Origin: a virus
Taxonomy: Duplodnaviria > Caudoviricetes
DNA length: 52,866 nucleotides
Strand: one strand, 5' to 3'
Virus record (IMG/VR): IMGVR_UViG_3300007960_000032
Location: 1 to 52,866 of that record
Shown: one piece after another, positions 1-18,994 of the stretch
Layout: the number at the start of each line of letters is the position of its first letter
Position numbering within the stretch: position 1 is the first letter of the stretch
Notes under the pieces: model-generated
The model's input: the letters and a program-made list of their open reading frames with translations, nothing else
Told to the model about the DNA's origin: nothing
Databases searched by the model: none
Program-made: the position numbers and the translations under genes

Positions 1-1
1 A

Positions 2-199
2 CTTGCTGATCATTTATATGTTAGTGGAATAGAAACTAAATCTGTATATCAGCAACCAATTTGGAATTTACCAGGCGCTTGTAATAATTGTAACAGACAT
101 CTAGCATTGCCATGTGATCCTTATACCACAGACCAAGAATTACTTCATATCATACGTAGTGTTAAAGAATTCTTCCAGGAACTTCCACTCGCGAGTTAA
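2..199 (+). CDS. C-terminal fragment of a DegT/DnrJ/EryC1/StrS-family PLP sugar aminotransferase (5' truncated by window edge)
   Basis: Manual translation of frame +2: LADHLYVSGIETKSVYQQPIWNLPGACNNCNRHLALPCDPYTTDQELLHIIRSVKEFFQELPLAS*. Resembles the GIETxxxY..P...LxLP..P..T.EE...II..VK.F C-terminus of DegT enzymes. Not in the supplied ORF track. Confidence 0.65.
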   Translation, partial: LADHLYVSGIETKSVYQQPIWNLPGACNNCNRHLALPCDPYTTDQELLHIIRSVKEFFQELPLAS

Positions 200-1384
200 G
201 TTTAAGTCCTGCCCTGAATCAATAAACCTCTGTGCATCATTAGCGCCACGCAAACTCCACTCAGCAAAATCACCTTCTGCTACAGTACACCATTGTTTAA
301 GTCTGTATCGACTTTCTATGTCATTGTTTTGTGCGAGCTTAATACACTCACGAAATGCTGTACGCCAGGTTGCATGTTTGTCTGTATTAAACTCTGCAAT
401 GCTACCCACAACAGGAACAACACCGTGTCTGGCGCTCAGTGTAAAGTCTAGTCCCCATTCATCTTGCTCTAGTACAAGTTTTTTATTGTATGCAATAATA
501 CCCATGTGGCCATATTCTAAACCTGTAACAGGATTGCGAGCATGGAAGATCCAATGTTTGTCTCCTTGCAGCCAATCTGGTTGCCAGTCGAAGTCAAACT
601 CAGGCAGTGTAACACACTTGGCAAATACATTAAAGAACCAAGGGGTATCACTAACCTCTGCGCATGCCTTGTATGCTTGTGCTCTGCCAGTAATTCCATC
701 AATTCGCTTTGCTCTAGGGCATATATCTTTTAGTATCTCCCAGTTTCTTTCAGCGTTTTTTTCACCATTTGAAAGATACACAACATCCAGTGGTTTTTCT
801 GCTATATTATGGGTATTATGACGCAAGATGTATGGGTAGTCGTAGTATTGTTCTTTAAATTGCGTTTTACAGTCCCTGGGCACTAGTAGTACACTTCCGC
901 TTTTATTAAAAACGTGTAGATTGCGTTCTTTCCACAAATTGGGGTCATAAGCTATACTTGTAGGGGTATTTTTAATCCATGCATAAAGTGTGCTGATTTC
1001 ACTCACATTCTTAACCGTAGGCCACGGTTTACGAGCTATTTCTGGCTGATTATGCCAGTTTATGTGCTCGTACCACTCAAGTAGTTTAAGCTCTTGTTCT
1101 TGCTTCTTAAAAGCACTGACAGGCACCAGGAAAGTATCGCCAAACTTCTGATCACCACTGGCCCAGCAATGTATTTGATCGGCTTCCCAGGGCACGGGTT
1201 GCCAAGTAAAGTCAAATGTTGCATAATTGCAACAGTCTGCTACAATCCACACATACTCCGTTCTAGCACGGTTAACACACCTGCGTATGGTATCCAGGTG
1301 TGTTCCGTTCCAGCGAGTGTATTCTGTGTGTGCAGGTAAGTCTACTGGTTCGTCAGTAATTTGCATGCAAAAGATATCAAACAT
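140..1384 (-). CDS. Phage glycosyltransferase-like (GT-A-like) protein with an internal domain duplication
   Basis: 414 aa. C-terminal half (LDVVYLSNGE...AKRIDGITG...WRTAFRECIKL) parallels the 11896-12816 protein (DTIFLTYDE...AKRVDGVEG...WRAGFREGVKM). FDFxWQP motif occurs twice. Confidence 0.6.
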   Translation of the reverse strand: MFDIFCMQITDEPVDLPAHTEYTRWNGTHLDTIRRCVNRARTEYVWIVADCCNYATFDFTWQPVPWEADQIHCWASGDQKFGDTFLVPVSAFKKQEQELKLLEWYEHINWHNQPEIARKPWPTVKNVSEISTLYAWIKNTPTSIAYDPNLWKERNLHVFNKSGSVLLVPRDCKTQFKEQYYDYPYILRHNTHNIAEKPLDVVYLSNGEKNAERNWEILKDICPRAKRIDGITGRAQAYKACAEVSDTPWFFNVFAKCVTLPEFDFDWQPDWLQGDKHWIFHARNPVTGLEYGHMGIIAYNKKLVLEQDEWGLDFTLSARHGVVPVVGSIAEFNTDKHATWRTAFRECIKLAQNNDIESRYRLKQWCTVAEGDFAEWSLRGANDAQRFIDSGQDLNLTREWKFLEEFFNTTYDMK

Positions 1385-1541
1385 CTTTTATGTCTGTTCT
1401 CACAATCACTTGTCGACAGTCTTCATTATACAAACCGTATACTCGCATATGTCCACAATACAACCCAGCACAGGATCCATATCCAGAGTTCTCAGGAACA
1501 CTTTCGACTATCTCTCTATCGCAATACTTGCATGTTTCCAT
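1377..1541 (-). CDS. Small Cys-rich protein (54 aa), possible metal-binding
   Basis: Manual translation METCKYCDREIVESVPENSGYGSCAGLYCGHMRVYGLYNEDCRQVIVRTDIKDV*. ATG overlaps the dCMP deaminase stop (TAATG), and the TGA lies just inside the start of the next gene. Fills the gap exactly. Confidence 0.65.
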   Translation of the reverse strand: METCKYCDREIVESVPENSGYGSCAGLYCGHMRVYGLYNEDCRQVIVRTDIKDV

Positions 1542-1951
1542 TAAATAGACATCTGCTCAACTTTAATGCCGCACTTTTCTAGAAAGTCAACGCCGTGTGT
1601 TAGGCGATATTCATGTACATAATAAACTTCAGTGATTCCGCTTTGGTAGAGTAGTTTAGCACAATCCATGCAGGGCTGATGAGTCACAAATGCTGTTGCT
1701 CCAGTGCCATTTTCGCTGCTACGAGCAAGTTTACAAATGGCGTTCGACTCTGCATGAAGTACCTCAGGTTTGGTTACATTATCATCTGTCTCGCACTCAT
1801 TTGTCCAGCCACTGGGCATGCCATTATAGCCAATACTAATAATGCGATTGTCTTTGACGATTACGCAACCAACTTGAAGTCGTGTTGCGGTTGAACATTC
1901 TGCATAGTTAAATGCAGACTTCATGTGTGCTTGTTTATGTTTTTGTTTCAT
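1541..1951 (-). CDS. cd: dCMP deaminase
   Basis: Zn-dependent deaminase motifs HAESNA and PCMDC; also VGCVIV..NRIISIGYNG. Confidence 0.93.
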   Translation of the reverse strand: MKQKHKQAHMKSAFNYAECSTATRLQVGCVIVKDNRIISIGYNGMPSGWTNECETDDNVTKPEVLHAESNAICKLARSSENGTGATAFVTHQPCMDCAKLLYQSGITEVYYVHEYRLTHGVDFLEKCGIKVEQMSI

Positions 1952-1957
1952 TTTAAT

Positions 1958-1986
1958 ATTATATAATTAAACACTCTATAAGTCAA
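1958..1986 (-). promoter_or_regulatory. Sigma70-type promoter for dCMP deaminase (probably leaderless transcript)
   Basis: Minus strand TTGACT (1986-1981), 17 nt, TATAAT (1963-1958), 6 nt, ATG (1951). Confidence 0.65.
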
Positions 1987-1989
1987 CTA

Positions 1990-2463
1990 CTAACCAAACC
2001 TTCCTAAGAACCTACCAATATGATGAATAAATGGCATTAAAGTTGCTGCCATAAACAGATTTACTCCAGTGTGCGCTAACGCAATCCTTAGTGTATCGCC
2101 CTTTGGCATACCGTCGGACACCAATGCTCCAGCAATCCATATAGTACCTGTTGTGCCAATGTTTGCACCCAGGACTGCCGCTATTGCCGCTGGCAGTGGC
2201 ACCGCACCACTTGCTACAAGAGCAATAATTGCAGTCGTAGACAATGACGAAGATTGCCACAACAATGTCATAATAATTCCACCTAAAAACATCCAATATG
2301 GATTATGAATAAAATAGGATAGATGATCTAAATTACCCATGGATTTCATTCCACCTGAAAACATCTTTAAACCAATATAAAAAATTACCAGCCCAACAAG
2401 GGTGGTAATTACAGGGTTACTTAATTCCATCTTTTTTACCTTTTTAATTAACTTATTTTTCAT
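1990..2463 (-). CDS. Na+/Pi cotransporter family (SLC34/NptA/YjbB-like) single-repeat membrane protein
   Basis: Signature QSSS...AAIAAVLGANIGTT and several hydrophobic helices. True start may be the ATG at 2430 (MELSNP). Confidence 0.85.
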   Translation of the reverse strand: MKNKLIKKVKKMELSNPVITTLVGLVIFYIGLKMFSGGMKSMGNLDHLSYFIHNPYWMFLGGIIMTLLWQSSSLSTTAIIALVASGAVPLPAAIAAVLGANIGTTGTIWIAGALVSDGMPKGDTLRIALAHTGVNLFMAATLMPFIHHIGRFLGRFG

Positions 2464-3948
2464 TTAACTGCATACCTTAACATTATATCGTTGTTGAAAT
2501 CTGTCTGCGTCTGCGCGGTCATTTACTACAGGCTCACCTCTAATGTTTAGACTAGTGTTTAATATAATAGGACAATCTGTCATTACATACCACATCTCTA
2601 ATAACTGCCTGGCACCTGTTTTGTCGTCTTTACCCACTGTTTGTACACGACTTGTTCCGTCAGCATGCACGATAGCAGGAAATTCTTTTGGAAACTTGCA
2701 CTCGTAGACACTCTGCATATACGGTTGATTGTCAAACTTAGGCATATCAAAATAGTCGTGTGCATGTTCTTCTAGGATCATTGGCGCAAATGGCCTAAAC
2801 TTTTGTCTGCGTTTAATTTCATTAACACGATCTTTAATGTCATCGCCTCTTGGATCAGCAAGTAAACTTCTATTACCCAATGCCCTGGGACCAAACTCTG
2901 CCCTGCCACTGGCAACGCCTACAATTTTATTTTCTATTAGTTCGCTTACTAGTTCCTCACAAGGATAGTCCCCAGGTATGTTAGTTCCTAAATAAGGACC
3001 TTGCCAGTTTAATTTCTTGCCGTAGGTCAATGCCGCCGCCCCTAAACTTGATCCACAGTCCCCAGGGTTGGGCATAATCCAAAGTCTATTCCAGATACTT
3101 CTTATCTGTGCGTTTGCTACACAATTAAGAGCAACCCCGCCCATAAACACACAAACGTCAATGTCTGGATTGCCTTCTGCTAGTTGACGCATTAGTGTAG
3201 TTAAACATCGCTCAACTACTAGTTGCCCAGCAATGGCTAAGTCTTCAGCCGGTGCATCTTTAAGAAACTCAGGATCCATACCTGCATGGAAATTCTGTGT
3301 CCAGGTTTGTTCATAATCCTCACATACAAACTCGTCATATACTTCTCTGTATTTGCTGGGATTTCCATAAGCAGACATTCCCATAAGGATATATTCTTCT
3401 TCCATGGGCTTTAATCCCACACGCTGAGTCATTGCACTGTAGAACAATCCCAGGCTATGTGGATAACGCTGGCTCATTATGCGGGTGTATTGTGCTTTTC
3501 CTCTGTTGTCATACTCAGCACGGTATGCGCTGTAAGTATCCCATTCACCAATGGCATCAACAACGACTACAATAGCCCGCTCGTAAGGACTTGTTTGAAA
3601 TCCAGCAGCGGCATGACTTAAATGATGTCTGTGATATTGGATGGGTCGGTTAACGCCTACTTCACTTAAATGCTGTTTAGGACTCTTATCAGTGAATGCC
3701 TTACGGAACTCACCGCTGTATATCTGTCTGGTTTTCTTAAGCCAGGGAGTTTCGTACCATGCTACTCTAGCAATCTCACCATGACTTAATGCTTCGTCGA
3801 TAATACCTTGATTTAAGTTAGCGTCGTTTTTTACACGACTATATCGTTCACTGTGAGCAGCAAAGAGTATATTGCCCCTGCTGTCAACAACACTAACTCC
3901 AGCGTCGTGGAACCCTGCACTCACACCTAATATATTACCTAATTTCAT
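2464..3948 (-). CDS. Carbamoyltransferase, NodU/CmcH/TobZ family
   Basis: Motifs HDAG, HHLSHAA, DAIGE, GGVALNC, EFGPRALGNRSLLADPR, FRPFAP, HADGTSRVQTV, LNTSLN. Confidence 0.95.
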   Translation of the reverse strand: MKLGNILGVSAGFHDAGVSVVDSRGNILFAAHSERYSRVKNDANLNQGIIDEALSHGEIARVAWYETPWLKKTRQIYSGEFRKAFTDKSPKQHLSEVGVNRPIQYHRHHLSHAAAGFQTSPYERAIVVVVDAIGEWDTYSAYRAEYDNRGKAQYTRIMSQRYPHSLGLFYSAMTQRVGLKPMEEEYILMGMSAYGNPSKYREVYDEFVCEDYEQTWTQNFHAGMDPEFLKDAPAEDLAIAGQLVVERCLTTLMRQLAEGNPDIDVCVFMGGVALNCVANAQIRSIWNRLWIMPNPGDCGSSLGAAALTYGKKLNWQGPYLGTNIPGDYPCEELVSELIENKIVGVASGRAEFGPRALGNRSLLADPRGDDIKDRVNEIKRRQKFRPFAPMILEEHAHDYFDMPKFDNQPYMQSVYECKFPKEFPAIVHADGTSRVQTVGKDDKTGARQLLEMWYVMTDCPIILNTSLNIRGEPVVNDRADADRFQQRYNVKVCS

Positions 3949-4143
3949 TTAACGTCTGTCTTGCAGTATGCGCTTTATAACTTCAGTTGCTGTATGAGTA
4001 AACAACCCTGGCACAATACTATGTACGATAAGTGCAGGCACCAATAGTTGAAATTTTATTGCCACTGTCAGTGCAACTATCATATGCTGCAATCCTGATT
4101 CATTTACTTCTGCTAAGTGTTTTTTACATTTTTTACTAAACAT
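3949..4143 (-). CDS. Small membrane-associated protein (DUF6356-like)
   Basis: 64 aa; pattern HL.EVNES..QH...A......L.....VH...P.LF..TA recalls DUF6356. Confidence 0.55.
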   Translation of the reverse strand: MFSKKCKKHLAEVNESGLQHMIVALTVAIKFQLLVPALIVHSIVPGLFTHTATEVIKRILQDRR

Positions 4144-4151
4144 GTTTCTGC

Positions 4152-4253
4152 CTATTTGTAAATAAAAGGATCTCTTTTTTTCAATTCTTTTAACCGTTTG
4201 CGGTATTGTATTTCCATTTTAATTCTGTTAATAATATTCTTAAGCCATGTCAT
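4152..4253 (-). CDS. 33-aa basic micro-protein ending KRDPFIYK
   Basis: Manual translation MTWLKNIINRIKMEIQYRKRLKELKKRDPFIYK*. GGAG Shine-Dalgarno-like sequence just upstream. Overlaps the end of the upstream radical SAM gene and fills the gap. Confidence 0.7.
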   Translation of the reverse strand: MTWLKNIINRIKMEIQYRKRLKELKKRDPFIYK

Positions 4254-5529
4254 CTGATATCTCTCCCCACCATGTAGATAACGCCTCATTGTCCAGGATG
4301 GTTTCTTCAAAAGTCATTCCTCCTCTAATAGTGTCTAATTTTTTAATTCTTTGCTTGCCCTGTATTCTTGCCTCTTGGAATGAATCAGGAAACTCTTCTT
4401 CAAAAGTAGGGCGTGTTACAAGGTTATTTAACACATCCTTTAGCGCCCTGTGATTTATTTTTGGTAGTACACTATTAATTATGCTTTCAAGAATGTCTCT
4501 GGGTAGAAACAATGGACTCATTGCTATGCTGGGATCAAAAGCAAAACACACTTTGGCAAGAATGTCCACATTAAGATCGTCTGCTAGTTTGCACATATTT
4601 TCCAGTTCAAATAGTCCTGGTGTGGTTAATGTAAAATCTAAGCGCATCTGGCGACGGTGACGGGCATGAGTTATACCTTGTTTAAAGTTTTCTAACCATG
4701 AATCGTATTTTAATCCAGTACGTATATACTCTCCTACCGGACCAGTGCCGTCAATACTAGCACATACCTGCCAGTCTCTAATGTTGTCTAATATGTCAGT
4801 GTATAAGTTAATGCCTTGATAGTCTACACGGCTTAGGTTTGTATTGTATCTAGCATATAACCCAGGGCCGTCTCCTAGTTCAATAATACGTTGCATGTAT
4901 CGCCAGTGTTGTTCGTACATCAGAGGCTCGCCACCAACCCAGTATATTTCCTCTATGCGATGTTCTTCTACAGCCTGACTAAACTCAGCCTCTATTTGTG
5001 TATCTTGATAGTTGCTAATTTGTTCTTTTACTGCTGGCTCCATCCAAGGTTCTATTTTACCTTGTTTACGAGCTTCTGTTTCCCAGCTACTTGATAACAT
5101 AGGGCCACACATACGACATTTAAAGTTACACAGGTTACTGAAACGATAGTCCCAGCTAATGGGCTTCATTGTAGTATATCCAGTTTCGTCTGTAGTTTTT
5201 AAAATTTGATCATACTTGTGACCAAACATTTGCCAGAAGTAACTGCGATATACATCAGTGTTCAGTAACTTGTTATTACATACTTCACATTCGGGAGGCA
5301 CAATGTTGTTTATCATATCACGCCTTACTCTACGGATACGTTCACTATTCCAATACTCATCTAAACTTTGCGGAGTGTATACGTTATCACCAGCATCTGT
5401 GTCAATGTATTGTGTAAAACTCTGTGCAGGTTCTCTGCTCGCACAACATAGACGTCTTTCTGTGACAGGTGACAAATACGTGTGAACCCAAGGTGCCATG
5501 CAGAGGCTATCTGGTTTATTCATAGCCAA
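4240..5529 (-). CDS. Radical SAM protein with N-terminal twitch/SPASM-like Cys cluster (copy 6, CxxPW type)
   Basis: CNFKCRMC (CxxxCxxC), GGEP, YNTN; N-terminal CMAPW...LCC...CEVC. Confidence 0.92.
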   Translation of the reverse strand: MAMNKPDSLCMAPWVHTYLSPVTERRLCCASREPAQSFTQYIDTDAGDNVYTPQSLDEYWNSERIRRVRRDMINNIVPPECEVCNNKLLNTDVYRSYFWQMFGHKYDQILKTTDETGYTTMKPISWDYRFSNLCNFKCRMCGPMLSSSWETEARKQGKIEPWMEPAVKEQISNYQDTQIEAEFSQAVEEHRIEEIYWVGGEPLMYEQHWRYMQRIIELGDGPGLYARYNTNLSRVDYQGINLYTDILDNIRDWQVCASIDGTGPVGEYIRTGLKYDSWLENFKQGITHARHRRQMRLDFTLTTPGLFELENMCKLADDLNVDILAKVCFAFDPSIAMSPLFLPRDILESIINSVLPKINHRALKDVLNNLVTRPTFEEEFPDSFQEARIQGKQRIKKLDTIRGGMTFEETILDNEALSTWWGEISDDMA

Positions 5530-6703
5530 TCATTTTTGCTACTTCAGGATGAGTTTCAGCGAATACAACACCACGTTGAATATCAGTCTGATCTAACTTC
5601 TTTCTCAGCGCCTCTCCTGTGTTTGCGTTGTCGTCGTTTAAACTAGTCATTGCAAACTCTTTAAGACTAATGATCCGATCCTTGTATTGCGGATGCAGGA
5701 TCTGACATTTTTGTAATACTAACATTAACGGTGATACCATGGCCTTGGGTAACTTGGATAAACTAAACTCCTCTGGGTCGTGCATTAGATTAAAATGTAT
5801 GTCGTCAATGCCACTGGTTTTTGCCCAGGTTAAGAAATCGTTCATATAAAAAATGTTTTGAACATTCCAGGTAACGCAGATCTGAAAACTTAGTGGATAC
5901 CCTTGTTCTTTTAATGCTAGGAATTTCTTAATATTACGGTTAACTGTAGCCCACTTTGCTCCGTCGCGTTCATATTCAAACCGTTCACCTACATTGTCAA
6001 TGCTAAACGCAATCTGAACATGTTTAAAGTTTTTCCATACTTCAAGTTGCTTGGGGTATTGTGTACCGTTTGTGTTATAGTGAATATCAATATCTTTAGC
6101 ATATCCCGATTTAGCAGCACGTTCTAGTAAATCAAAGTGTTGCTTGATTAGAAATGGCTCACCGCCGGTAAATTCAAAATATTTAATATCAGGCAGAATA
6201 CTGTCAACATGTTCCCAGAACTTCTTGCTCTTGCGGGGCCATTGTCCTTGTTTAAGCCATTGGCTGGCAATATTTTCTTTACCATGTTGTGCTATTTCTT
6301 CCTGGGCCCACTTACTTGAACTCCAGGATCCGCAAATACGACATTTTAGATTACATATGTTTCCTAGCTTTAAGTCCAGGAATTGTAGTGTTTCACCTTC
6401 TAAATTGGTGTAGTCAACTTCCACATGTTTAAACTTTTCCAACATGTATTCACGCTTGCTTTTCTTGCCAGCCTTCTCTTCTGACCAGCACCGTTGACAC
6501 TGCCCAGGTAGTTTATCTTCGCTAAATGCTTTCCTCAGTGACTTCATATAAGGACTGCGGAATGCTTCTTCAAGTGTATTTTTATTTAAATCAATATCAG
6601 GAACTTCACCAACTGCTAAACAACAAGGCCTAACTTGGCCCAGGGGTGTCGTCTCTAAACTAATCCAGGGAAGAATACATTTTCCTCCATACTCTCTAGC
6701 CAT
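5516..6703 (-). CDS. Radical SAM protein with N-terminal twitch/SPASM-like cluster (copy 5, CxxPW type)
   Basis: CNLKCRIC, GGEP, YNTNG; N-terminal CILPW...PCC...CQRC. Confidence 0.92.
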   Translation of the reverse strand: MAREYGGKCILPWISLETTPLGQVRPCCLAVGEVPDIDLNKNTLEEAFRSPYMKSLRKAFSEDKLPGQCQRCWSEEKAGKKSKREYMLEKFKHVEVDYTNLEGETLQFLDLKLGNICNLKCRICGSWSSSKWAQEEIAQHGKENIASQWLKQGQWPRKSKKFWEHVDSILPDIKYFEFTGGEPFLIKQHFDLLERAAKSGYAKDIDIHYNTNGTQYPKQLEVWKNFKHVQIAFSIDNVGERFEYERDGAKWATVNRNIKKFLALKEQGYPLSFQICVTWNVQNIFYMNDFLTWAKTSGIDDIHFNLMHDPEEFSLSKLPKAMVSPLMLVLQKCQILHPQYKDRIISLKEFAMTSLNDDNANTGEALRKKLDQTDIQRGVVFAETHPEVAKMIGYE

Positions 6704-7988: not shown

Positions 7989-9253
7989 GTTTTTTCAATC
8001 ACTAATTCAGGCCATAATGTTCGCCAACTTGTATTTCTTCTTCTATCTATCTCGTCGTGGTATCCATGTAGTTTTTCTATTGCCTTGTAATTATTCTCAG
8101 TATTAGTTTGCATAACATCTTGCAATCCAGTAAAGATTTTTACCGTTTCCTGTTGTTGAAATGTGTCTGTTTTCAATTCTTTAAATATCTCTTTCCAAAC
8201 TGGTTCCCAGATTTCATACGCAAAAATCTCAGGACGCATGAAAGGATATCCGTCTACTAACATTGCATAATGACCAATGTGTCTATTAGTATTATACTTG
8301 TTAATCATACGGATTAAATCAGGCATAGTTTTCATGGTTAAGCTACTTACGGTTTGATTTGCAGATAAGAATAAAAATTCTTCTGGAAAACTTGCAGCAT
8401 ACGCAAAGTTCTCTTCAAACTCTGTACAGTTTAATCCAAATCTAACATATTCTGCATGCGCCCCCCAACAATCAATACTAGCTGTTAGATCAAATCTGCC
8501 AATGCATCCTTTTTTCCACAGCTCATATATAGCGTTAATGTATTTTTTAAAATATTTCTGCGGGGGATTAAAGTTGCTAAAGATATTAAGTTGCAGGTTA
8601 GGACAGGGTTTTCTTTCTACTAAATCTAAAACTCTAGTTATCAAATCATGCTGAATAAAAGTTTCTCCGCCTAGTAGGTGGAGCCGCATAAGTCCCTGTA
8701 TATTATCTTCTAACCATACAAAGAAATCTTCGTACCTCTTATCAACTACGGCATTGTTTAGATCTTTTACAGGACTAAAAAGTGCATGATCGCCAAAACT
8801 TCTACTTTCTTGTTCAATTCTGCTACTTAACATTGGGTTGCAGTATGTACACTTAAAATTACAAGTATTATGGGCAAATATCTCCACAATAGTAGGCTTT
8901 ACATTGGTTAATGTCTGGTCATCTTTAAGTTCAGTGGGAGCATATCCTGGCAAATCGTTATTATGCATCCTGTCACTAAACCCTCCAGCATCTTCAATTA
9001 CTTTACAATATTCGCAGCCTTGGCCTGGCCACTCTCCTTTAAGCATCTTTTCACGGTGGACAATCTTTTCAGGCAAGTTATGAAAACTACCAAAATTATC
9101 CTCGGGTATCTTAAAGTCATCTACTCTATGACAACTACTGCTAGTTCCAGAATTAAGCCATATAGTACTCCAGGACCATTTGCTCTGACAGGCAGTCTCT
9201 GTCTTTATTGGAAAATAATAATCTAAATCCTGTGTCATAGTGTCATGTACCAA
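7985..9253 (-). CDS. Radical SAM protein (copy 3, CxxKW type)
   Basis: CNFKCTYC, GGET; N-terminal CQSKW...SCH...CEYC. Confidence 0.9.
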   Translation of the reverse strand: MVHDTMTQDLDYYFPIKTETACQSKWSWSTIWLNSGTSSSCHRVDDFKIPEDNFGSFHNLPEKIVHREKMLKGEWPGQGCEYCKVIEDAGGFSDRMHNNDLPGYAPTELKDDQTLTNVKPTIVEIFAHNTCNFKCTYCNPMLSSRIEQESRSFGDHALFSPVKDLNNAVVDKRYEDFFVWLEDNIQGLMRLHLLGGETFIQHDLITRVLDLVERKPCPNLQLNIFSNFNPPQKYFKKYINAIYELWKKGCIGRFDLTASIDCWGAHAEYVRFGLNCTEFEENFAYAASFPEEFLFLSANQTVSSLTMKTMPDLIRMINKYNTNRHIGHYAMLVDGYPFMRPEIFAYEIWEPVWKEIFKELKTDTFQQQETVKIFTGLQDVMQTNTENNYKAIEKLHGYHDEIDRRRNTSWRTLWPELVIEKT

Positions 9254-10563
9254 TCTTTTAACTCTGGAAATGTTGTTTCAAAGTTTTTGTTTCTTCTTAC
9301 ATCATATTGTTGGTAGAATTGTTTAAAATCATTGTGTAGTTTAGGCATTTCAAATGCTTCGTTGTGTGGTGTCTCTACTGTGTGCAAATATTCAATAAGT
9401 CTCTCAACTTGCCCTCGTTCAAAATCATGTAAGTCCCAGGATAGTATCGCTTTTAACCTGCCTGCACATGTGTTTTTAACATTCTGTGGTAATACTAAAC
9501 AACTTTGAAAACTAGGAAATCTAAGAATATTTAAACTAAACACTGCAAAGTCTTTGTTTAACTCTTGTCTAGCATGCAGTATTTTAAATATTAAGTCTGG
9601 GAGTGTGTCCAAACAAAGTGCATTAACTGTCATCATGCAATGTGTATCTATACCAGCTTCATGTAGTCTTACTAAGTTATCCCACCAGCTATTAAAGTCT
9701 AATCCATCTCTAATGTACTCTGCTTTAATTCCTGTAGACTCACAACTAGTATATACATCCAGACTAGGCAAGTGTGTTCTTGCTTCAACTAACCGATCAA
9801 TTAACTCTGGTTTACCACCTAGGTTGCTGTTAATAGCGATACGGCAATCTGATGTATTACCCTCTTTCTTAAACCAATCCAATAACTTCCAAAGCTCAGG
9901 GCTCATAATAGGCTCACCACCAGTAATGCGTAGTTCACGCAATGTAAGGTGTAAGTCACTGTCCCACCATTTAAAGAACGCTTCCACATAAGGATTGTAT
10001 TCGTTTAATCCAAATAGTTGGTTGTTATCATGACTATGAGTAAAATGATTGCGTCCGTCACTAACAAGATCAGTATAGCCGCCATTGTTCTTTAAATCCT
10101 TTACCCAGGTAGTACTAAAAGCAGGATTGCAATAGCTACAAGCAAAGTTACATGTTCTGTCAAAGGCAATCTCTAGTGTGCGTAGATTGACATCTTCTTC
10201 ACTATCAGTTTTATAAAACTCTTGCAATTCTTGTTCAGTATAAATCTTTGACTTGTACACACGGTCGCTTATATATTTAGGGCCCATGTCTTCAATCTTC
10301 CAGCAGTATTCACAACCCGCAGGACGCTCGCCACATTGCATTTGTCTGCGCTGTTCTTTTTTCTCTGGAGTATTGTGTAGGAGTTTAGGATTAGATTGCA
10401 CTGCTATTGGATCAATCTTATGAGGCAGTGGATGATGACAACTAGTAGTCATACCACTGCCCAACCAAATAGTAGCATTGCCCCATTTCGCTCCGCAAAA
10501 ACTCGCACTCTTAGTATCAAGTACTGTTTGTTTGTATTTAAGATCTGTTAGCTTTGTATTCAC
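9235..10563 (-). CDS. Radical SAM protein (copy 2, CxxKW type)
   Basis: CNFACSYC, GGEP, NSN; N-terminal CGAKW...SCHHP...CEYC. Confidence 0.92.
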   Translation of the reverse strand: MNTKLTDLKYKQTVLDTKSASFCGAKWGNATIWLGSGMTTSCHHPLPHKIDPIAVQSNPKLLHNTPEKKEQRRQMQCGERPAGCEYCWKIEDMGPKYISDRVYKSKIYTEQELQEFYKTDSEEDVNLRTLEIAFDRTCNFACSYCNPAFSTTWVKDLKNNGGYTDLVSDGRNHFTHSHDNNQLFGLNEYNPYVEAFFKWWDSDLHLTLRELRITGGEPIMSPELWKLLDWFKKEGNTSDCRIAINSNLGGKPELIDRLVEARTHLPSLDVYTSCESTGIKAEYIRDGLDFNSWWDNLVRLHEAGIDTHCMMTVNALCLDTLPDLIFKILHARQELNKDFAVFSLNILRFPSFQSCLVLPQNVKNTCAGRLKAILSWDLHDFERGQVERLIEYLHTVETPHNEAFEMPKLHNDFKQFYQQYDVRRNKNFETTFPELKDWYMTL

Positions 10564-11902
10564 ATGTACTCCAAAATTCTGTCATCTCTGGAAACGTCTT
10601 TAAAAAGTTAGTGCCTCTTCGGCGATCATGTTCGCTAAAGAAACGATAAAAGTCTGCTTGTTTGCGTTCAACGTCTGTTGTTCTATGGAGCATCCAGTCT
10701 AAGTCACGTTGCATCTTTAAAACTTCATAGTCCTTAAATCCATGCATTTCGTGAAGATTGCTATTCATATATTCTACACACTCCTTGAGACAAATGCTAT
10801 AACTTTCTGGTAAGATTTGCAGGCTTTGCCATTCTGGAGTGTACAGTAAGGGTGTATCAAACCAAATCCGCTGATAAGTCGTCGTGTAAGTCTGACGAAG
10901 ATACAGGATATGCTCTAGTAACTTTTTAAGGTTTATAATGTTAAGATTGCTCATTGTAATAATGAACGTTAAACTTGACCGACTGGGAATATCTCTAACA
11001 AACTCTTCACATCTATTTATTGCCAAATTAAAATCTAACCCGTGTCGTATATACTCTGCTTGCTTTCCCCAGGTATCTAAACTAACAAACTGCATGAAGT
11101 GTTCTATTTGTTCACCTTTACATAACTCTTGCACATACCCTTTGTACTTGTCCCAGACCATGGGATCAACACTAAAGTTACTGGTAGTGTTTAAATGCAA
11201 GTCAGGTTTAGGATTTTCGAGTACATAGTCAAATACACGATAGGTGTTTGGGTCCATGGTAGGTTCACCACCTGTCATACGGAAATGTTTTAGATCTTTG
11301 TATAGGTCAGGCCACCAACGCCAGAATGCTTCGCGGTAAGGATTGTCCTCCCTGTTAGGAATAGCACGTCGAGATCCTGTAAAGTGTACAGGGTCATTGT
11401 GTGGAGTACTAGTAGGCCAAGCACCGTGTTCTTTTGCTTCTTTAGTCCAGGTGCTGCTAAATTGTGGACTACAATAGCTACAACTAAGATTGCAAGCATT
11501 GTTAAAGTTTACTTCAACATAACTTGGGTTGACATCTGCTTGTGGGTTATTTACAATGTCCTCAAATGAGTCCATAGCCCAGGGTTCACCGCTGCGATAA
11601 TGTCTGTCACTCATGTTATCTTGTGCTTCAATATTCCAACAGTAGTTGCAATCTGTACACTTTGTACCAGACATCATTTCCAGACGACTTTGTTTCTTGT
11701 GTGCAGTGTTATGCAAGGCACTGGGATTATCCGCCAATGGCTCAACAGGTATGCGATGCAAAGGAGGATGATAACAACTGTTGGTATGCCCAGTTGTTAA
11801 ATGTAGACTAACTTGTTTCCATTTAGCTAAACAAAAACTATCACTTACTGTGGCAAGTTTTTCTTTTGCTAACTGAGCATCATTAAAATAATCGCTCACC
11901 AC
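10538..11902 (-). CDS. Radical SAM protein (copy 1, CxxKW type)
   Basis: CNLSCSYC, GGEP; N-terminal CLAKW...SCYHP...CNYC. Confidence 0.92.
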   Translation of the reverse strand: MVSDYFNDAQLAKEKLATVSDSFCLAKWKQVSLHLTTGHTNSCYHPPLHRIPVEPLADNPSALHNTAHKKQSRLEMMSGTKCTDCNYCWNIEAQDNMSDRHYRSGEPWAMDSFEDIVNNPQADVNPSYVEVNFNNACNLSCSYCSPQFSSTWTKEAKEHGAWPTSTPHNDPVHFTGSRRAIPNREDNPYREAFWRWWPDLYKDLKHFRMTGGEPTMDPNTYRVFDYVLENPKPDLHLNTTSNFSVDPMVWDKYKGYVQELCKGEQIEHFMQFVSLDTWGKQAEYIRHGLDFNLAINRCEEFVRDIPSRSSLTFIITMSNLNIINLKKLLEHILYLRQTYTTTYQRIWFDTPLLYTPEWQSLQILPESYSICLKECVEYMNSNLHEMHGFKDYEVLKMQRDLDWMLHRTTDVERKQADFYRFFSEHDRRRGTNFLKTFPEMTEFWSTCEYKANRS

Positions 11903-12816
11903 CCTTCGACCTTTCTAATAACTTCTAGTTCTGTAGTCATTGGGTCATGTTCATGATAGGTCTGACTGTAATAGTGTTTAAAGAATCGACTCACGTCTCC
12001 GGTATAGTCAACAATGGGGAGCAATAATTTTCGTCTAAGAATTGCTCCCCATTCCTGGTATTCATCCACTGTGTAATCATGTTCTTCCCAGAGACGATCC
12101 AACGCTGCAAAGTCTCTGACTTCATGCCAATCCCAATCGGTACACATTAGCTTGTAGGTGCCATACCTTGCACCCACCATTGCTTCGAACCCGTATTCGC
12201 TATCTTGACCCACACTTTGCCAAATACACAATTTGTCAAAGTTCTTAGCATGAACTTGTTTGTGGAATTCTTCTAGAGTAGGCTTGTATCCTTTGTTAAG
12301 ACACATCTTAACACCTTCTCTAAATCCTGCTCGCCATGCATGTCGTGCACTGCCATTAGGATAGGTAGTTGAGTAAACATTATTCATGGGAATGTATTTG
12401 CTGTCAAAGCAAAACTCAACTACTGTTTCGTGTGAACCATCAGTTGCTTCGTGTGTTTGCATGTTATTGATAAACTCACGAGTCCAGCAACTAAGTCCGC
12501 CGTTGCCGTACATAAGTCCGTTAACTGAATTACGAGCTTTCCAACGGAACACACAATCCTCGTGCTCAGGCTTAATATCTAACTGTAAGTTAAAAAAGCT
12601 AGCATCGGGAATATTATCGCCGTCAATGAGAATAAAGCGTTCAGTGTCACTGGCTGCGGCTGCGGCTTTGTGTGCTGCATCTGAACCTTCAACTCCGTCT
12701 ACTCGTTTAGCCCAGGGCACAATGTTTTGTATTTGAACCCAGAACTCTTCTTTCTTTGGTTCATCGTACGTCAAAAAAATCGTGTCCATATCCGCTGTGT
12801 CAATCAGCATCGTCAT
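11896..12816 (-). CDS. Glycosyltransferase-like protein (GT-A fold, DxD)
   Basis: FILIDGDN (DxD after a hydrophobic strand), YGNGG, AWRAGFREGVK; paralogous to the C-terminal half of 140-1384. Confidence 0.65.
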   Translation of the reverse strand: MTMLIDTADMDTIFLTYDEPKKEEFWVQIQNIVPWAKRVDGVEGSDAAHKAAAAASDTERFILIDGDNIPDASFFNLQLDIKPEHEDCVFRWKARNSVNGLMYGNGGLSCWTREFINNMQTHEATDGSHETVVEFCFDSKYIPMNNVYSTTYPNGSARHAWRAGFREGVKMCLNKGYKPTLEEFHKQVHAKNFDKLCIWQSVGQDSEYGFEAMVGARYGTYKLMCTDWDWHEVRDFAALDRLWEEHDYTVDEYQEWGAILRRKLLLPIVDYTGDVSRFFKHYYSQTYHEHDPMTTELEVIRKVEGW

Positions 12817-13144
12817 TTAGTTCCTCTATACAAAAATATGGATTATTTTCTAATACTAGTGCAGGCGGCGGATCTTGCCAGTGTGTTTGTACACTAGTAT
12901 CAATCCAGGTAATCTTGCCATCAATAATTCTATGATCGATAGGATTGTGCAGGGCTGTGTCTTGTGATATTATAATGTAGTCTTCTTCCCAGACTTCGTT
13001 AACAGGAACAGTATTAGCATCTTCAATCTTATACTCACCAGTTTCTACATTATATTTTAGTCTTCGTTCAGTTTCAATAACTGGATTAGATTCCACAAGC
13101 GCAAATGCTTGTAAAAATGGATTAGATTCCAAGTCGTTGTTCAT
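12800..13144 (-). CDS. Hypothetical protein (114 aa, acidic)
   Basis: ORF overlapping both neighbours in the operon; no recognisable motif. Confidence 0.7.
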   Translation of the reverse strand: MNNDLESNPFLQAFALVESNPVIETERRLKYNVETGEYKIEDANTVPVNEVWEEDYIIISQDTALHNPIDHRIIDGKITWIDTSVQTHWQDPPPALVLENNPYFCIEELNDDAD

Positions 13145-14018
13145 ATCTACCTATCAGTTCTTCAGTGCAAAAATCTTTCTGGAAATAGTGGAAGGGGTAA
13201 TGCTGTGCGTATCCGCCTACTACAAAATCAAAGTCGTTGGTTAAAGTCCATCTAACAGAGTTGCGCCAATCCCAGTCTGGTTTCCAACCATTAATAGCAC
13301 CTTTCATGTGGGCAAAGGTTGGATAACTCATTGGCCCGATAGGCTGTTGAGCGATCCCGGTTTGCCGGGCATGGGCATGGTCACTGATGTTATTTCCGCT
13401 GGCCCAGATGGTTCCAGCAATGCCAAATATAACATCAGTATCAGGTGTGTCATAAAAACAATGATCAAGCACCCCATCTCTAAGAGCAGTAAAGTTTTCA
13501 AGAGTCCTGGTTGCAAGATTAAAAAACTCTTTGCTATCCCTGGAATAACGAAAATACATAAAACCGTTATAAACATCAGCCAGATTATTAGCATCAAAAA
13601 ACTTCCTGTAATACCTAGTATTACTTATTTTTCCTTGATAATTTCTCACCTTGGATGTCATTACTACATCACTTGTTCTACAGCCAGCCCACCAATGATC
13701 AATGTTTCTGGGGATCAGCATATCTGATTCTACCTTAAACGTTTCTGTAAAAGGAGTTAAACTCCACGCCTGGCATTCGATTGCGAAAGGATTTTCTTGC
13801 CTGGGCACTTCAATAATATAATCAAATACCCGGCGCTGGGTGTCTGTTAGTGTTTGTGCAGAGTCATGATCTATTACTACTGCAAACTTATTTATAGTGC
13901 AGGTAGCCTTAACACTCAACGCCAGCAAGTATGCTTGATTAACATAGTTAACTGTGTCACTGTTCTGTGCAAATGTTAACCAGCCCTGCGGTTCTACTTT
14001 TTTCTTAAACATCAGCAT
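13122..14018 (-). CDS. Nucleotide-diphospho-sugar transferase-like protein (GT8-like)
   Basis: YVNQAYLLALSVK...FDYIIEV...WSLTPFTETFKVESDML...YNGFMYF; GT8-like TPF.ET..xDxD region with ESD. Confidence 0.65.
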   Translation of the reverse strand: MLMFKKKVEPQGWLTFAQNSDTVNYVNQAYLLALSVKATCTINKFAVVIDHDSAQTLTDTQRRVFDYIIEVPRQENPFAIECQAWSLTPFTETFKVESDMLIPRNIDHWWAGCRTSDVVMTSKVRNYQGKISNTRYYRKFFDANNLADVYNGFMYFRYSRDSKEFFNLATRTLENFTALRDGVLDHCFYDTPDTDVIFGIAGTIWASGNNISDHAHARQTGIAQQPIGPMSYPTFAHMKGAINGWKPDWDWRNSVRWTLTNDFDFVVGGYAQHYPFHYFQKDFCTEELIGRYEQRLGI

Positions 14019-14787
14019 ACCGTTCTAACTCGCCCCTGATCTCTGGATCCATTAAACAGGCTTTGTTCATTATGTGCAGGTTTGTATCCTTGATCTTTAA
14101 TGCATTATAAGATCCATGATATTGATATTTGATAAACAACTCACTGCCATGTACTTTATAGATTGTATCCATGGTGCTTAAACTTGGCAAGGGATGATTA
14201 AATGTTGTGCCTTGATCATATCCCTGCATGAGTTGATGAGCGAGTGTAAGACTAAAATCGTTACGATATTTACTTCCTGGAAATCCCCAAAATTTACAAT
14301 GGTATCGCCAGTTAGTTTGTATATTCTTCATCATTTCAAATATGTTGTATGCTAGTTCACACTTGCGGAAATAAACAACAGTTGCCCATAGCATGGGATG
14401 GCCTGCTCGTGTCATATATCTTTCATGCTTCATACTGTCGGTATGTGTAACGTCCCAGACACGGTCATAACACAAAAACTCGTGATTACCTCCAAAGTAA
14501 TCTTTGAGTTGATTATTAAAAGTCATATAGTCTACGTCTATTAACAGTGTTTCTTCAAAGGGCGACAAATCATACGCCAGCGGACGATCTGAGTTAAACC
14601 ATTGCACACGGTCTATTGTACCATCGTGCCATTTAAACGCACGGATGTTTCCAGGCCGTGCTTCACCGATGTGTATGTGCGTGTCAATACCCAGATGCTT
14701 TTCCACTAGTTTTGCAGCAAGTTTAGCAAAACCTATATAATCTATAGTATCATGTGGCGTGGCAAGTAATAGTGCGCCTTTACTCAC
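14005..14787 (-). CDS. Nucleotide-diphospho-sugar transferase-like protein (GT8-like)
   Basis: AYDLSPFEETLLIDVDY (DxD), WATVVYF, YRNDF, H.MNK; paralogous to 13122-14018. Confidence 0.7.
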   Translation of the reverse strand: MSKGALLLATPHDTIDYIGFAKLAAKLVEKHLGIDTHIHIGEARPGNIRAFKWHDGTIDRVQWFNSDRPLAYDLSPFEETLLIDVDYMTFNNQLKDYFGGNHEFLCYDRVWDVTHTDSMKHERYMTRAGHPMLWATVVYFRKCELAYNIFEMMKNIQTNWRYHCKFWGFPGSKYRNDFSLTLAHQLMQGYDQGTTFNHPLPSLSTMDTIYKVHGSELFIKYQYHGSYNALKIKDTNLHIMNKACLMDPEIRGELERYADV

Positions 14788-15106
14788 TAAGTTGACCTAC
14801 TCTACGAACTTTTTTAAGTTCCTGATATTGATTATGCCAATCGTTCATTACTTCATACCAGCGTTGTCTACATGCTACCAGCATATCAGTAGCATCTACA
14901 ATCTCTACAGGATTTTCATATGAATCTACTAGATATAGGATGTCATTCTCTGGCCAAGTAGCAAGTAACGCCATTAGTTCAGTGGTTACAAGAAACATTC
15001 CACCAGCATATGCCAGTGTTAGACGTTGCTCTTGTTGTTCTTTAAGGGCTAGCCGTTGTCTATTATGATCAAGTCGTTGTCGTGCAAACTCTTCAAAGTT
15101 TTCCAT
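14780..15106 (-). CDS. Hypothetical protein, possibly tail-fibre-assembly/chaperone-like
   Basis: 108 aa, first gene downstream of the fibre genes; helical with GGMF and D..ENPV motifs. Function inferred from position only. Confidence 0.6.
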   Translation of the reverse strand: MENFEEFARQRLDHNRQRLALKEQQEQRLTLAYAGGMFLVTTELMALLATWPENDILYLVDSYENPVEIVDATDMLVACRQRWYEVMNDWHNQYQELKKVRRVGQLSE

Positions 15107-15143
15107 ATTAAAAGTCCCTAATAAAGATTAGTATCATGCACTC

Positions 15144-15172
15144 AGTATAACAGGGCCCGTAGGCCCTGTCAA
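15144..15172 (-). promoter_or_regulatory. Sigma70-type promoter whose spacer is a perfect hairpin (possible combined terminator/promoter)
   Basis: Minus strand TTGACA-gggcctacgggccctgt(17 nt)-TATACT; ACAGGGCC-TACG-GGCCCTGT forms an 8-bp stem with a C(UACG)G tetraloop. Confidence 0.7.
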
Positions 15173-15192
15173 CTTGTTTAAGTTTTTTTTAT

Positions 15193-15198
15193 TATTTA
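15193..15198 (-). promoter_or_regulatory. Candidate late promoter core TAAATA overlapping the stop codon of the upstream structural gene
   Basis: CCTAAATAAT on the minus strand; the same core precedes other late genes in this window. Confidence 0.4.
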
Positions 15199-16170: not shown

Positions 16171-16184
16171 TTATAATAATTCCT

Positions 16185-17627: not shown

Positions 17628-17656
17628 GACTAAATCCTCCTAAAATGTCTTAAATA

Positions 17657-17683
17657 TATTTATGCTTGTTAGATATATTTATA
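17657..17683 (-). promoter_or_regulatory. T4-type late promoters (TATAAATA at 17683-17676; CATAAATA at 17664-17657)
   Basis: Exact T4 gp55 consensus TATAAATA upstream of the fibre gene; a gp55 homologue is encoded in the window. Confidence 0.65.
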
Positions 17684-18251: not shown

Positions 18252-18256
18252 TGCTG

Positions 18257-18318
18257 TAACTCTTGCTAGTTATAGAGAAGGCGGATGCACAAACATCGCG
18301 ACCTTCACACTATTTAAC
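18257..18318 (-). promoter_or_regulatory. Structured leader of the HNH gene: late-promoter-like GTTAAATA plus two hairpins
   Basis: GTTAAATA (18318-18311); bulged hairpin GAAGG.CG.GATG/CATC.CG.CCTTC (18306-18277); TAACT-agcaag-AGTTA hairpin (18272-18257) just before the ATG. Confidence 0.55.
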
Positions 18319-18324
18319 AAACAA

Positions 18325-18990: not shown

Positions 18991-18994
18991 TATA

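Follow-up and report, generated by a model that had tools for sequence, protein, structure and literature searches.

The 52,866-base contig IMGVR_UViG_3300007960_000032, a tailed-phage record of IMG/VR analysed here over its entire length (the window), carries on its minus strand a block of genes at 140-15106, directly behind Ser/Thr-rich tail fibre genes. Six of its products are radical S-adenosylmethionine (SAM) enzymes of a single family, four are transferase-like and one is an O-carbamoyltransferase. We read the block as a phage island that assembles and tailors a glycan, the acceptor being most likely a virion fibre protein, and give this reading a probability of roughly 0.55. Its glycan-building part is well supported by protein families, predicted folds, synteny, the sugar-nucleotide enzymes encoded beside related radical SAM genes, and a bacterial O-antigen locus. 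A fibre acceptor we infer from the conserved adjacency of block and fibre genes, and the GT8-type matches of the transferase-like protein 13122-14018 also favour a virion protein. An earlier annotation made from the letters of this DNA (the original prediction) had proposed a glycan pathway resembling a biosynthetic gene cluster. That proposal fits the folds, families and synteny described below, as well as an O-antigen locus in which a radical SAM enzyme is fused to Wzt.

The block comprises 16 open reading frames (ORFs) of at least 60 amino acids (aa) plus a 54-aa ORF at 1377-1541 (Table 1). Ten of the junctions overlap by 4-26 bases and two abut, and there are only two real gaps, of 96 bp (4144-4239) and 38 bp (1952-1989). 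The tight, co-oriented packing reported originally therefore stands, with 17 ORFs in place of about 18.

Six paralogues of one radical SAM family

All six ORFs between 4240 and 11902 score above the curated cut-off (170 bits) of NCBIfam family NF033640 (N_Twi_rSAM, twitch domain-containing radical SAM protein), at 216-383 bits, which confirms the number of radical SAM enzymes first called. Pairwise identity among the six paralogues is just 20-31%. Invariant across their alignment are the CX3CX2C site (C149, C153 and C156 in the numbering of 6696-7988) and a GGE motif (G209-G210-E211), and in the N-terminal domain C42, C61, C102 and C105 are found in all six. The Pfam SPASM model matches residues 9-106 in three of the six, that is, N-terminal to the core, and the four N-terminal cysteines are predicted to ligate an auxiliary cluster fully. 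In a midpoint-rooted FastTree phylogeny of 59 family members, printed without support values, every window paralogue clusters with its own orthologues. The 7985, 9235 and 10538 types (named by start coordinate; clade A) form a clade separate from a broader one that holds the 4240, 5516 and 6696 types (clade B). About 50 homologues of 6696-7988 measure ∼760-950 aa, roughly double one enzyme, a length that suggests fusion with a 5516-type enzyme.

Tandem sets of the family hold four to seven members. Two related phage genomes, G002 (338.5 kb, 97% complete) and G003, carry 8 and 12 copies over the cut-off, respectively, spread over several loci. In sequence comparisons of the radical SAM core the best PDB entry was 8VPO, a cyclopropylglycine synthase, and BlsE (E 1.6e-4) and BtrN (E 0.03-0.05) also matched; by analogy, the window enzymes would carry out radical reactions on sugars. 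We found no description in the literature of the NF033640 family or of a glycan/radical SAM system of this kind, in keeping with the original statement that no characterized phage pathway has this enzyme set.

Neighbours of related copies and a Wzt fusion

Among ten scanned neighbours of the G002 copies that lie outside the block, five are sugar- or sugar-nucleotide-type enzymes: a nucleotidyltransferase-kinase fusion, a UDP-glucose/GDP-mannose dehydrogenase, two oxidoreductases and a sugar C-methyltransferase-like gene, that is, a methyltransferase with a sugar C-methyltransferase C-terminal domain. The others are LPP20, UvdE, an ADI-like protein, a DNA polymerase and one protein without a family. 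For G003, two of ten neighbours are sugar-nucleotide enzymes, one is a DNA ligase and seven have no family.

A sample of 401 Pseudomonadota genomes contained NF033640 members over the cut-off in three cases: a probable phage contig, a copy in a prophage-like region beside a GT2 gene, and genome G104. Contig 19 of the latter (54% GC, locus L051) holds four tandem members flanked by RmlC, RmlD, a WbsX glycosyltransferase, a TylF-type O-methyltransferase and another methyltransferase. Within this locus, L051:8579-11143 encodes an 854-aa fusion of ABC_tran, Wzt_C, twitch and radical SAM domains. Wzt is the ATPase that recognizes and exports finished O-antigen chains. Its fusion to a radical SAM enzyme in an O-antigen locus therefore suggests glycans as the substrate of NF033640 enzymes, and is difficult to square with peptides or DNA in that role.

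Two pairs of transferase-like genes

The four transferase-like genes form two paralogous pairs that are unrelated to each other. The original designation of all four as glycosyltransferase-like holds by fold for the GT8-like pair, whereas the 11896-12816/140-1384 pair has a GT-A or nucleotidyltransferase-like fold and stays ambiguous.

The members of the GT8-like pair, 13122-14018 and 14005-14787, align with an hhalign probability of 98.7 (E 2e-16). An AlphaFold model of 13122-14018, built on 17 orthologues (pLDDT 87.6), matched glycogenin-1 in Foldseek at E 1.5e-9 and TM 0.40-0.47, with other GT8 and GT6 members next, and the family profile reached glycogenin in the PDB at E 9e-4. Its GT8-type fold matches include glycogenin, Skp1 galactosyltransferase, xyloside xylosyltransferase and LH3, enzymes that mostly glycosylate proteins or primers. 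As a candidate acidic-x-Asp motif for metal and nucleotide-sugar binding, 13122-14018 has a nearly invariant E97 and an invariant D99, and an invariant D84-x-D86 of 14005-14787 aligns with this E97-x-D99; H237 and H277 of the former and H238 of the latter are invariant and are candidates for the downstream His of GT8 enzymes. No Pfam family, PF01501 included, matched either member at E ≤ 0.01. That both are GT8-like, 13122-14018 by modelled fold and 14005-14787 through its paralogue, yet outside the formal GT8 family, is well supported.

Paralogy of 11896-12816 and the C-terminal half of 140-1384 is evident from blastp (28% identity over 171 aa, E 1e-15) and hhalign (probability 99.9, E 2e-31). 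The AlphaFold2 (AF2) model of 11896-12816 (pLDDT 80.4) gave Foldseek matches at E 3e-4 to HddC, SunS, ArnC and PBCV-1 A64R, and VIA returned Z scores of 9.5-9.0 to B4GALNT1, STIV A197, MobA and IspD over residues 3-156 only. D65, D67 and N68 are invariant among 16 orthologues. Profile searches against the PDB from A1 for this pair and from A3 for the GT8-like pair gave nothing usable. The profile of this unnamed GT-A-like family found 1468 representatives at E ≤ 1e-3, and the best 150 of these include many tandem doublets and ∼17 proteins of 715-809 aa that carry the domain C-terminally, but no fusion to a radical SAM enzyme. In all seven N-terminally extended forms tested (six of 715-809 aa and one of 444 aa) a GT1/GT28 domain (EryCIII-like, MurG-like or UDPGT) precedes the GT-A-like domain. 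These fusions therefore support a role of the family in glycan assembly, not a specific activity.

Conservation of the block and a minimal module

Scanning IMG/VR with 6696-7988 yielded 29 loci with orthologues at 38-82% identity; many of them are truncated, either at a contig end or at the limit of the 10-kb flank, which bears on all counts given for them. When each locus ORF was assigned to its best window ORF, gene order was collinear in 26 of the 29, and the co-occurrence across related phages that the original prediction implied is borne out. Among the radical SAM types, the 10538 type was assigned in 23 loci, the 4240 type in 22 and the 9235 type in 20, plus L002; the 5516 type is present in 23 at no less than 42% identity. 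The 7985 type is seldom present: assignment placed it in L013 and L026, and other orthologues lie at L014:7406-8668 (38%) and L031:7421-8692 (65%). A seawater DNA contig joins position 7982 to 9233 and represents a natural variant lacking radical SAM gene 7985-9253.

The GT-A-like gene occurs in 18 loci and the GT8-like genes in 18 and 17. By tblastn, the carbamoyltransferase was found in 19 and the deaminase in 10. The small protein 14780-15106 recurs in 14, the fibre-like gene 15196-16170 in 12 and the fibre gene 16185-17594 in 10, and the small ORF 12800-13144 in only 3. Relatives add further enzymes to their blocks: an SDR epimerase/dehydratase, DegT, a B12 radical SAM methyltransferase, an FNR-like reductase that is plausible as an electron donor, SGNH-like proteins, an APS-kinase-like protein and a 2-oxoglutarate (2OG) oxygenase.

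The whole block had no megablast match among 50,697 phage records. With the radical SAM sequence as query, tblastn of the same records found only Vibrio phages K566 and K567, RsoM2USA and one marine fragment. K566 has four NF033640 members but no homologue of the transferase families. RsoM2USA, a cultured Ralstonia phage of 343.8 kb, is the only record of the 50,697 with homologues of those families, and its module runs from ORF355 through ORF354, ORF353, ORF352, ORF351, ORF350 and ORF349 to ORF348. ORF355 is fibre-like and matches both 15196-16170 and 16185-17594; ORF354 is the homologue of 14780-15106; ORF353 and ORF352 are two GT8-like proteins; ORF350 and ORF348 are two GT-A-like paralogues; and ORF349 is a single clade A radical SAM enzyme with 34% identity to 10538-11902 (E 2e-87). 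The giant virion protein ORF361 is encoded ∼5 kb upstream of the module. The window block looks like an RsoM2USA-like core with five inserted radical SAM genes and a carbamoyltransferase. In the RsoM2USA paper ORFs 348-355 are unannotated, and its main text does not mention radical SAM.

Scanning genome contigs with one protein gave a single locus, L031, on a 42.7-kb contig in a Legionellales metagenome-assembled genome (MAG). Its block is 54-81% identical at the protein level and includes an extra B12 radical SAM methyltransferase. Because its gene content mirrors the phage block, this is probably a phage contig misbinned into a bacterial MAG.

Fibre genes and the junction upstream of the block

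Serine and threonine together make up 28% of 15196-16170, 23% of 16185-17594 and 25% of 18995-22108, against 9-14% of the enzymes. The fibre genes were thus correctly described as Ser/Thr-rich, and 16185-17594 matches tail-fibre PHROGs; 15196-16170 has no family match in Pfam or PHROG. Orthologues of 15196-16170 lie directly upstream of the block in 10 of the 13 loci in which the junction is visible. Among named Atlas clusters, DUF4376 (0.90) comes nearest to 14780-15106, the gene that opens the block; this is no more than a lead, and so is a role for the protein as a fibre chaperone. A homing-endonuclease-like ORF at 17679-18251 (minus strand; I-TevI DNA-binding domain, at the Pfam threshold) is inserted among the fibre genes and has no tblastn homologue in any of the 29 IMG/VR loci.

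A promoter-like site had been placed just upstream of the block, and we found it there at 15172-15144 on the minus strand: TTGACA-17-TATACT, with 11 of 12 consensus matches plus TG. It is located in the 89-bp gap 15107-15195 behind the fibre-like gene, and its spacer contains a GC-rich hairpin (15150-15169). Such sites are not enriched in the region, with 59 occurrences compared with 55.1 ± 7.1 in shuffles. The homologous junction of 8 of 13 relatives (L002, L007, L008, L013-L016 and L023), inspected by eye, has an exact TTGACA at the same position and a TAnnnT hexamer 16-18 bases later. An inverted repeat covers the spacer or the −10 hexamer in these relatives; its sequence differs, the repeat is kept, and a T-run often follows. 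In three relatives the junction gap measures 6-46 bases and has no such promoter site. We read the junction element as a terminator of the fibre transcript merged with an early-type promoter of the block, or alternatively as an operator. The block is collinear with the fibre genes as first described, but because it has its own sigma-70-like promoter behind a terminator-like hairpin, it probably does not form one operon with them.

The T4 late-promoter motif TATAAATA is not enriched in the window (3 occurrences, 4.4 expected) and is absent before the block. Two of the three motifs (17676-17683 and 39395-39402, minus strand) lie just upstream of 16185-17594 and of the gp6-like gene 35847-39374.

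Carbamoyltransferase, aminotransferase and probable passenger genes

Both Pfam domains of the carbamoyltransferase 2464-3948 score above their gathering thresholds (PF16861, 173 bits, threshold 27; PF02543, 113 bits, threshold 24), and its PDB sequence matches are NovN (1.1e-47), GdmN (2.8e-45) and TobZ (8e-35), O-carbamoyltransferases that act on sugars or polyketides, which upholds the original assignment. An identity as NodU itself was rejected at 133 bits, the cut-off of the equivalog NF041651 being 1000. The convergent gene at the contig end had been called a DegT-like aminotransferase. The 65-aa fragment itself has no Pfam match, and the call is supported through its 54% identity (E 9e-22) to residues 264-326 of L020:18846-19838, a protein that matches PF01041 at E 1.9e-38. 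Full-length DegT orthologues in L020, L002 and L031 match PF01041 at E 2e-38 to 2e-52.

Three genes of the block probably stand outside the pathway. A separate promoter-like site (TTGACT-17-TATAAT at 1986-1958) precedes the dCMP deaminase gene, and relatives hold purM or other genes in this variable stretch; the deaminase is therefore probably a passenger belonging to nucleotide metabolism. The Na/Pi-transporter fragment and the DUF6356 gene are probably passengers as well. The former encodes only the first ∼130 positions of the cotransporter domain and was matched by tblastn (E ≤ 1e-5) in one of the 29 loci, L002; since the same truncated form occurs there at 94% identity, it appears to be kept rather than decaying. 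A seawater DNA contig joins 3948 to 4158, a natural variant without the DUF6356 gene, which is dispensable. Of the originally proposed single pathway the core therefore stands, and these three genes probably do not belong to it. An AIRS-family gene beside the carbamoyltransferase of L002 was considered as a HypE-like partner and rejected, being purM (270 bits, cut-off 236). The putative small ORF 1377-1541 has five cysteine codons; it would be translationally coupled to the deaminase gene through their overlapping stop and start (TAATG), and its last bases are shared with the beginning of 140-1384. The six remaining ORFs of the block had no match in Pfam, PHROG or NCBIfam.

Table 1. Coordinates, assignments and supporting evidence for genes and sites in and beside the block
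Position	Strand	Feature	Basis
2-199	+	DegT/DnrJ/EryC1-family sugar aminotransferase, 3' end (last 63 codons), convergent, truncated by contig end	identity to L020 DegT
140-1384	-	414-aa protein; C-terminal half is paralogue of 11896-12816 (unnamed GT-A-like family)	blastp, hhalign
1377-1541	-	54-aa Cys-rich putative ORF	translation only
1541-1951	-	dCMP deaminase	PF00383 E 7e-23, PF14437 E 3.6e-17
1990-2463	-	Na/Pi cotransporter N-terminal fragment, 157 aa	PF02690 E 7.5e-17
2464-3948	-	O-carbamoyltransferase, ATP- and carbamoyl-phosphate-dependent, NodU/CmcH/TobZ/NovN type	PF16861, PF02543, PDB matches
3949-4143	-	DUF6356 small hydrophobic protein, 64 aa	PF19883 E 6.7e-13
4240-5529	-	N-terminal-twitch radical SAM, clade B	NF033640 288 bits; groups with orthologues in tree
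5516-6703	-	N-terminal-twitch radical SAM, clade B	NF033640 333 bits
6696-7988	-	N-terminal-twitch radical SAM, clade B	NF033640 383 bits
7985-9253	-	N-terminal-twitch radical SAM, clade A, least conserved member	NF033640 216 bits
9235-10563	-	N-terminal-twitch radical SAM, clade A	NF033640 304 bits
10538-11902	-	N-terminal-twitch radical SAM, clade A, type shared with RsoM2USA minimal module	NF033640 312 bits
11896-12816	-	unnamed GT-A-like family member, 306 aa, invariant D65-x-D67-N68	AF2 model, fold matches
12800-13144	-	114-aa protein, retained in closest relatives only (3/29 loci)	no family match
13122-14018	-	GT8/glycogenin-like GT-A-fold glycosyltransferase candidate	AF2 model, Foldseek
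14005-14787	-	distant GT8-like paralogue of 13122-14018	hhalign
14780-15106	-	108-aa conserved first gene of block	orthologues in 14/29 loci; RsoM2USA ORF354 E 2e-12
15144-15172	-	sigma-70-like promoter-like site TTGACA-17-TATACT with TG	motif search
15196-16170	-	Ser/Thr-rich fibre-like protein, 324 aa, candidate acceptor	composition; no family match
16185-17594	-	tail fibre protein with C-terminal chaperone/autoproteolysis-like domain	phrog_19602 E 4e-14; weak Peptidase_G2 E 7e-4

Phage lineage and distribution

The contig is estimated by CheckV to represent ∼15% of a genome. Judged by its genes, the phage is a jumbo T4-like myovirus related to Atu_ph07, CBB and PA5oct: the top cultured relatives of its gp6-like baseplate wedge gene are Phosso, Atu_ph07, fHe-Yen9, CBB and PA5oct at 35-38% identity. 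The window further encodes a baseplate hub, a gp55-like late sigma factor, gp46/47-like nucleases and a single 4559-aa ORF. This ORF (22168-35847, minus strand) lies between the baseplate wedge and fibre genes and has weak similarity to the RsoM2USA virion protein ORF361 (2541 aa).

Near-identical DNA was present in 20 public sequencing runs from 15 studies, 4 of which runs may be the window's own source; the runs are labelled freshwater, aquatic, estuary, salt marsh and seawater. This spread over runs and studies implies that the system is common in nature. Metatranscriptome contigs from three libraries of two studies cover 30, 30 and 21 of the 30 bins of window positions 1-19000; as such libraries can contain DNA and the contigs lack strand and level, we do not count them as evidence of transcription.

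Discussion

In the pathway that we favour, the four transferases would build a short oligosaccharide directly on a soluble acceptor, most likely the Ser/Thr-rich fibre protein whose gene immediately precedes the block, or else other fibres of the virion. Each radical SAM enzyme would abstract a hydrogen from a particular sugar position, and its fully ligated auxiliary cluster would accept an electron, as in BtrN-type dehydrogenases, to give keto, epimerized or deoxy sugars. DegT would aminate a keto intermediate and the carbamoyltransferase would cap a hydroxyl; the dCMP deaminase, Na/Pi fragment, DUF6356 protein and small ORFs would be passengers in a variable stretch. A search of G002 and G003 for initiating phosphoglycosyl transferases (PF02397 or PF00953) found none, with controls positive in 9 and 12 of 14 genomes, an absence that fits direct transfer to a soluble acceptor.

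Several observations weigh against this reading. Adjacency to the fibre genes is the only link to a fibre acceptor, and the enzymes may be made before the fibres and thus at a different time, although expression of the enzymes earlier than the fibres is compatible with any target. We know of no NF033640 member with an established reaction, and the radical chemistry is proposed here by analogy only. All four transferase-like proteins fall short of every Pfam, NCBIfam and PHROG model, and the fold of 11896-12816 resembles glycosyltransferases and nucleotidyltransferases (MobA/IspD/HddC) about equally, at Z 9.5-7.5. Of the 20 tested neighbours of radical SAM copies outside the block, 8 have no family and 5 belong to families unrelated to sugars. 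The bacterial parallel concerns a lipid-linked O-antigen and would also fit remodelling of the host envelope. The carbamoyltransferase lies 0.5 kb from the dCMP deaminase, a pairing enriched on cytosine-modified phage contigs (Yang et al.).

Remodelling of the host envelope is the strongest rival, and one that we hold to be doubtful. The enzymes would act early on a lipid-linked host polysaccharide, O-antigen or capsule, thereby blocking superinfection or altering the surface. In cells, the one setting in which we found the radical SAM family is an O-antigen locus of the ABC-transporter type that includes a Wzt fusion. This speaks for such a role, as do the sigma-70-like promoter in 8 of 13 relatives, suggesting early expression by host polymerase, and the location of the block in a variable stretch with auxiliary metabolic genes (purM, the Na/Pi fragment). 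However, no PF02397 or PF00953 initiating transferase was found in the 97%-complete G002 and no flippase or exporter was seen within the window block. Distant phages, RsoM2USA included, also strictly keep the block behind their fibre genes, and the matched GT8-type enzymes mostly glycosylate proteins or glycan primers. Manufacture during infection of a diffusible aminoglycoside-, aminocoumarin-sugar- or nucleoside-like glycoside is quite improbable. Aminoglycoside and deoxysugar antibiotic clusters have the same enzyme classes as their hallmark set: twitch radical SAM, DegT, TobZ/NovN-type carbamoyltransferase and glycosyltransferases. Against a small molecule stand the conserved position beside virion genes and the lack of a scaffold-forming enzyme such as a cyclitol synthase, polyketide synthase (PKS) or non-ribosomal peptide synthetase (NRPS), and of an exporter, in the window or in the annotated blocks of relatives. 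Lower still we rank modification of peptide or protein side chains, in which maturases like those of RiPPs (peptides made by ribosomes and modified after translation) would cross-link or epimerize a small ORF product or a fibre. SPASM/twitch radical SAM enzymes are mostly peptide maturases, 8VPO is the best PDB core match, the window enzymes have weak NCBIfam matches to sactipeptide and ranthipeptide maturases, and small ORFs (12800-13144, 14780-15106 and the Cys-rich 1377-1541) are at hand. Yet the PDB matches, no better than E 1e-7, extend only over the core that radical SAM enzymes have in common; the auxiliary domain sits at the N terminus; and the bacterial members, including the Wzt fusion, belong to a polysaccharide locus. 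General Pfam and NCBIfam scans, with no search aimed at it, turned up no RiPP recognition element (RRE)-type family or RRE-like domain. Among the ortholog assignments of the 29 loci there was no conserved precursor-like ORF, the small ORFs other than 14780-15106 not being conserved.

Hypermodification of DNA, listed as an alternative in the original prediction, is due more weight than it was given there. In that case the carbamoyltransferase would make 5-carbamoyloxymethylcytosine from 5-hydroxymethylcytosine (5hmC), with transferases and radical SAM enzymes decorating bases. Yang et al. 2021 (PMC8670742) validated in vitro a phage NodU/TobZ-type enzyme that carbamoylates 5hmC. According to the available text of that paper, on modified contigs the enzyme lies within 3 kb of thymidylate-synthase homologues, PF01503, PF00383 and PF14437; dCMP-specific, Asp177-type thymidylate-synthase homologues occur on cytosine-modified contigs and His147 and Asn177 are tied to unmodified ones; and residues at TobZ positions 408, 421 and 423 are diagnostic for the carbamoyltransferase. 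The neighbouring deaminase of the window matches both PF00383 and PF14437 and recurs in 10 of the 29 loci of relatives, and in G002 a thymidylate-synthase gene follows ∼7 kb further on. This gene, however, is the single PF00303 gene of G002, scores above two thymidylate-synthase equivalog cut-offs and carries CH and PFNIASY motifs, which we take to be the equivalents of His147 and Asn177 in E. coli numbering, and so is of the Asn/His rather than the Asp177 type. Dihydrofolate reductase adjoins it, with an NDP-sugar SDR also adjacent, and no C5 DNA methyltransferase was found in G002, where the control was positive in 9 of 14 genomes. A Tet/JBP search gave no match, but its control was likewise silent and the result is uninformative; the window, itself only ∼15% of a genome, has no PF00303 gene. 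G002 hence shows no route to 5hmC, and for the block as a whole we consider DNA modification unlikely, though the carbamoyltransferase alone may act on DNA.

Extended to its full form, the glycan reading states that jumbo T4-like aquatic phages coat their tail fibres with an oligosaccharide that is edited, one sugar after another, by up to seven radical SAM enzymes, then aminated and carbamoylated; we put this forward tentatively, as less likely than not. If true, it would represent the first case of a viral glycan tailored by radical SAM enzymes, and NF033640 would gain its first function; the Wzt fusion suggests that bacteria would apply this chemistry to O-antigens. With 8-12 copies in each phage genome, the family would then point to a large, unexplored range of radical reactions on carbohydrates by which host range is set or virions are shielded. 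Virus-encoded glycosylation is already known; the radical SAM component is unprecedented. In many uncultured phages the tandem sets persist as stable groups of orthologues. For enzymology they offer defined, conserved candidates for new carbohydrate radical reactions, and for phage biology a testable idea of how large phages decorate fibres or alter host surfaces.

Comparison with known systems

Mycobacteriophages glycosylate virion proteins with phage-encoded glycosyltransferases (Freeman et al. 2023, as described in PMC12619734), and as in the window the glycosyltransferase genes lie beside structural genes. As far as that description goes, those systems use one or two glycosyltransferases without radical SAM enzymes, a carbamoyltransferase or an aminotransferase, whereas the window belongs to a T4-like jumbo myovirus and has virion proteins only as the candidate target. 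In the 5hmC system of Yang et al. (PMC8670742), a phage enzyme of the carbamoyltransferase superfamily likewise has a dCMP deaminase close by; in contrast to that system, as its available text presents it, the relative G002 has a canonical thymidylate synthase and no 5hmC route was found in it. For an environmental T4-like genome of a marine virus, Nishimura et al. 2017 (PMC5332604) gave 12 radical SAM genes, a number that resembles those of G002 and G003. The accessible part of that paper treats radical SAM enzymes only as Fe-S cluster clients and proposes no family, neighbourhood or function for them; the 'moraphage' paper mentions neither radical SAM nor carbamoyl.

Giant viruses encode, like the window, their own transferases together with sugar-nucleotide tailoring enzymes. 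PBCV-1 A64R and Mimivirus R655 are among the fold matches of 11896-12816, although these are weak (E 9e-4, Z 7.6-7.7) and the viruses eukaryotic; we know of no radical SAM array in them. TobZ, NovN, GdmN and NodU share both Pfam domains with 2464-3948, with strong PDB matches, but the window protein is ∼80-200 residues shorter and divergent in its N-terminal part. BtrN and BlsE combine, like NF033640 enzymes, a radical SAM core with an auxiliary 4Fe-4S domain, and sequence matches to them are weak; the DesII type is a further radical SAM sugar enzyme. In contrast to BtrN and BlsE, NF033640 members measure ∼400-450 aa, have the auxiliary domain at the N terminus and a helical C-terminal part, and constitute a family of their own that occurs in tandem sets. 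In the G104 O-antigen locus the setting is cellular, the substrate lipid-linked and the exporter ATPase fused to a radical SAM enzyme, whereas the phage block has neither exporter nor lipid-carrier initiating enzyme. Like the window, this locus combines a tandem NF033640 set with a glycosyltransferase, to which it adds a methyltransferase and dTDP-rhamnose genes.

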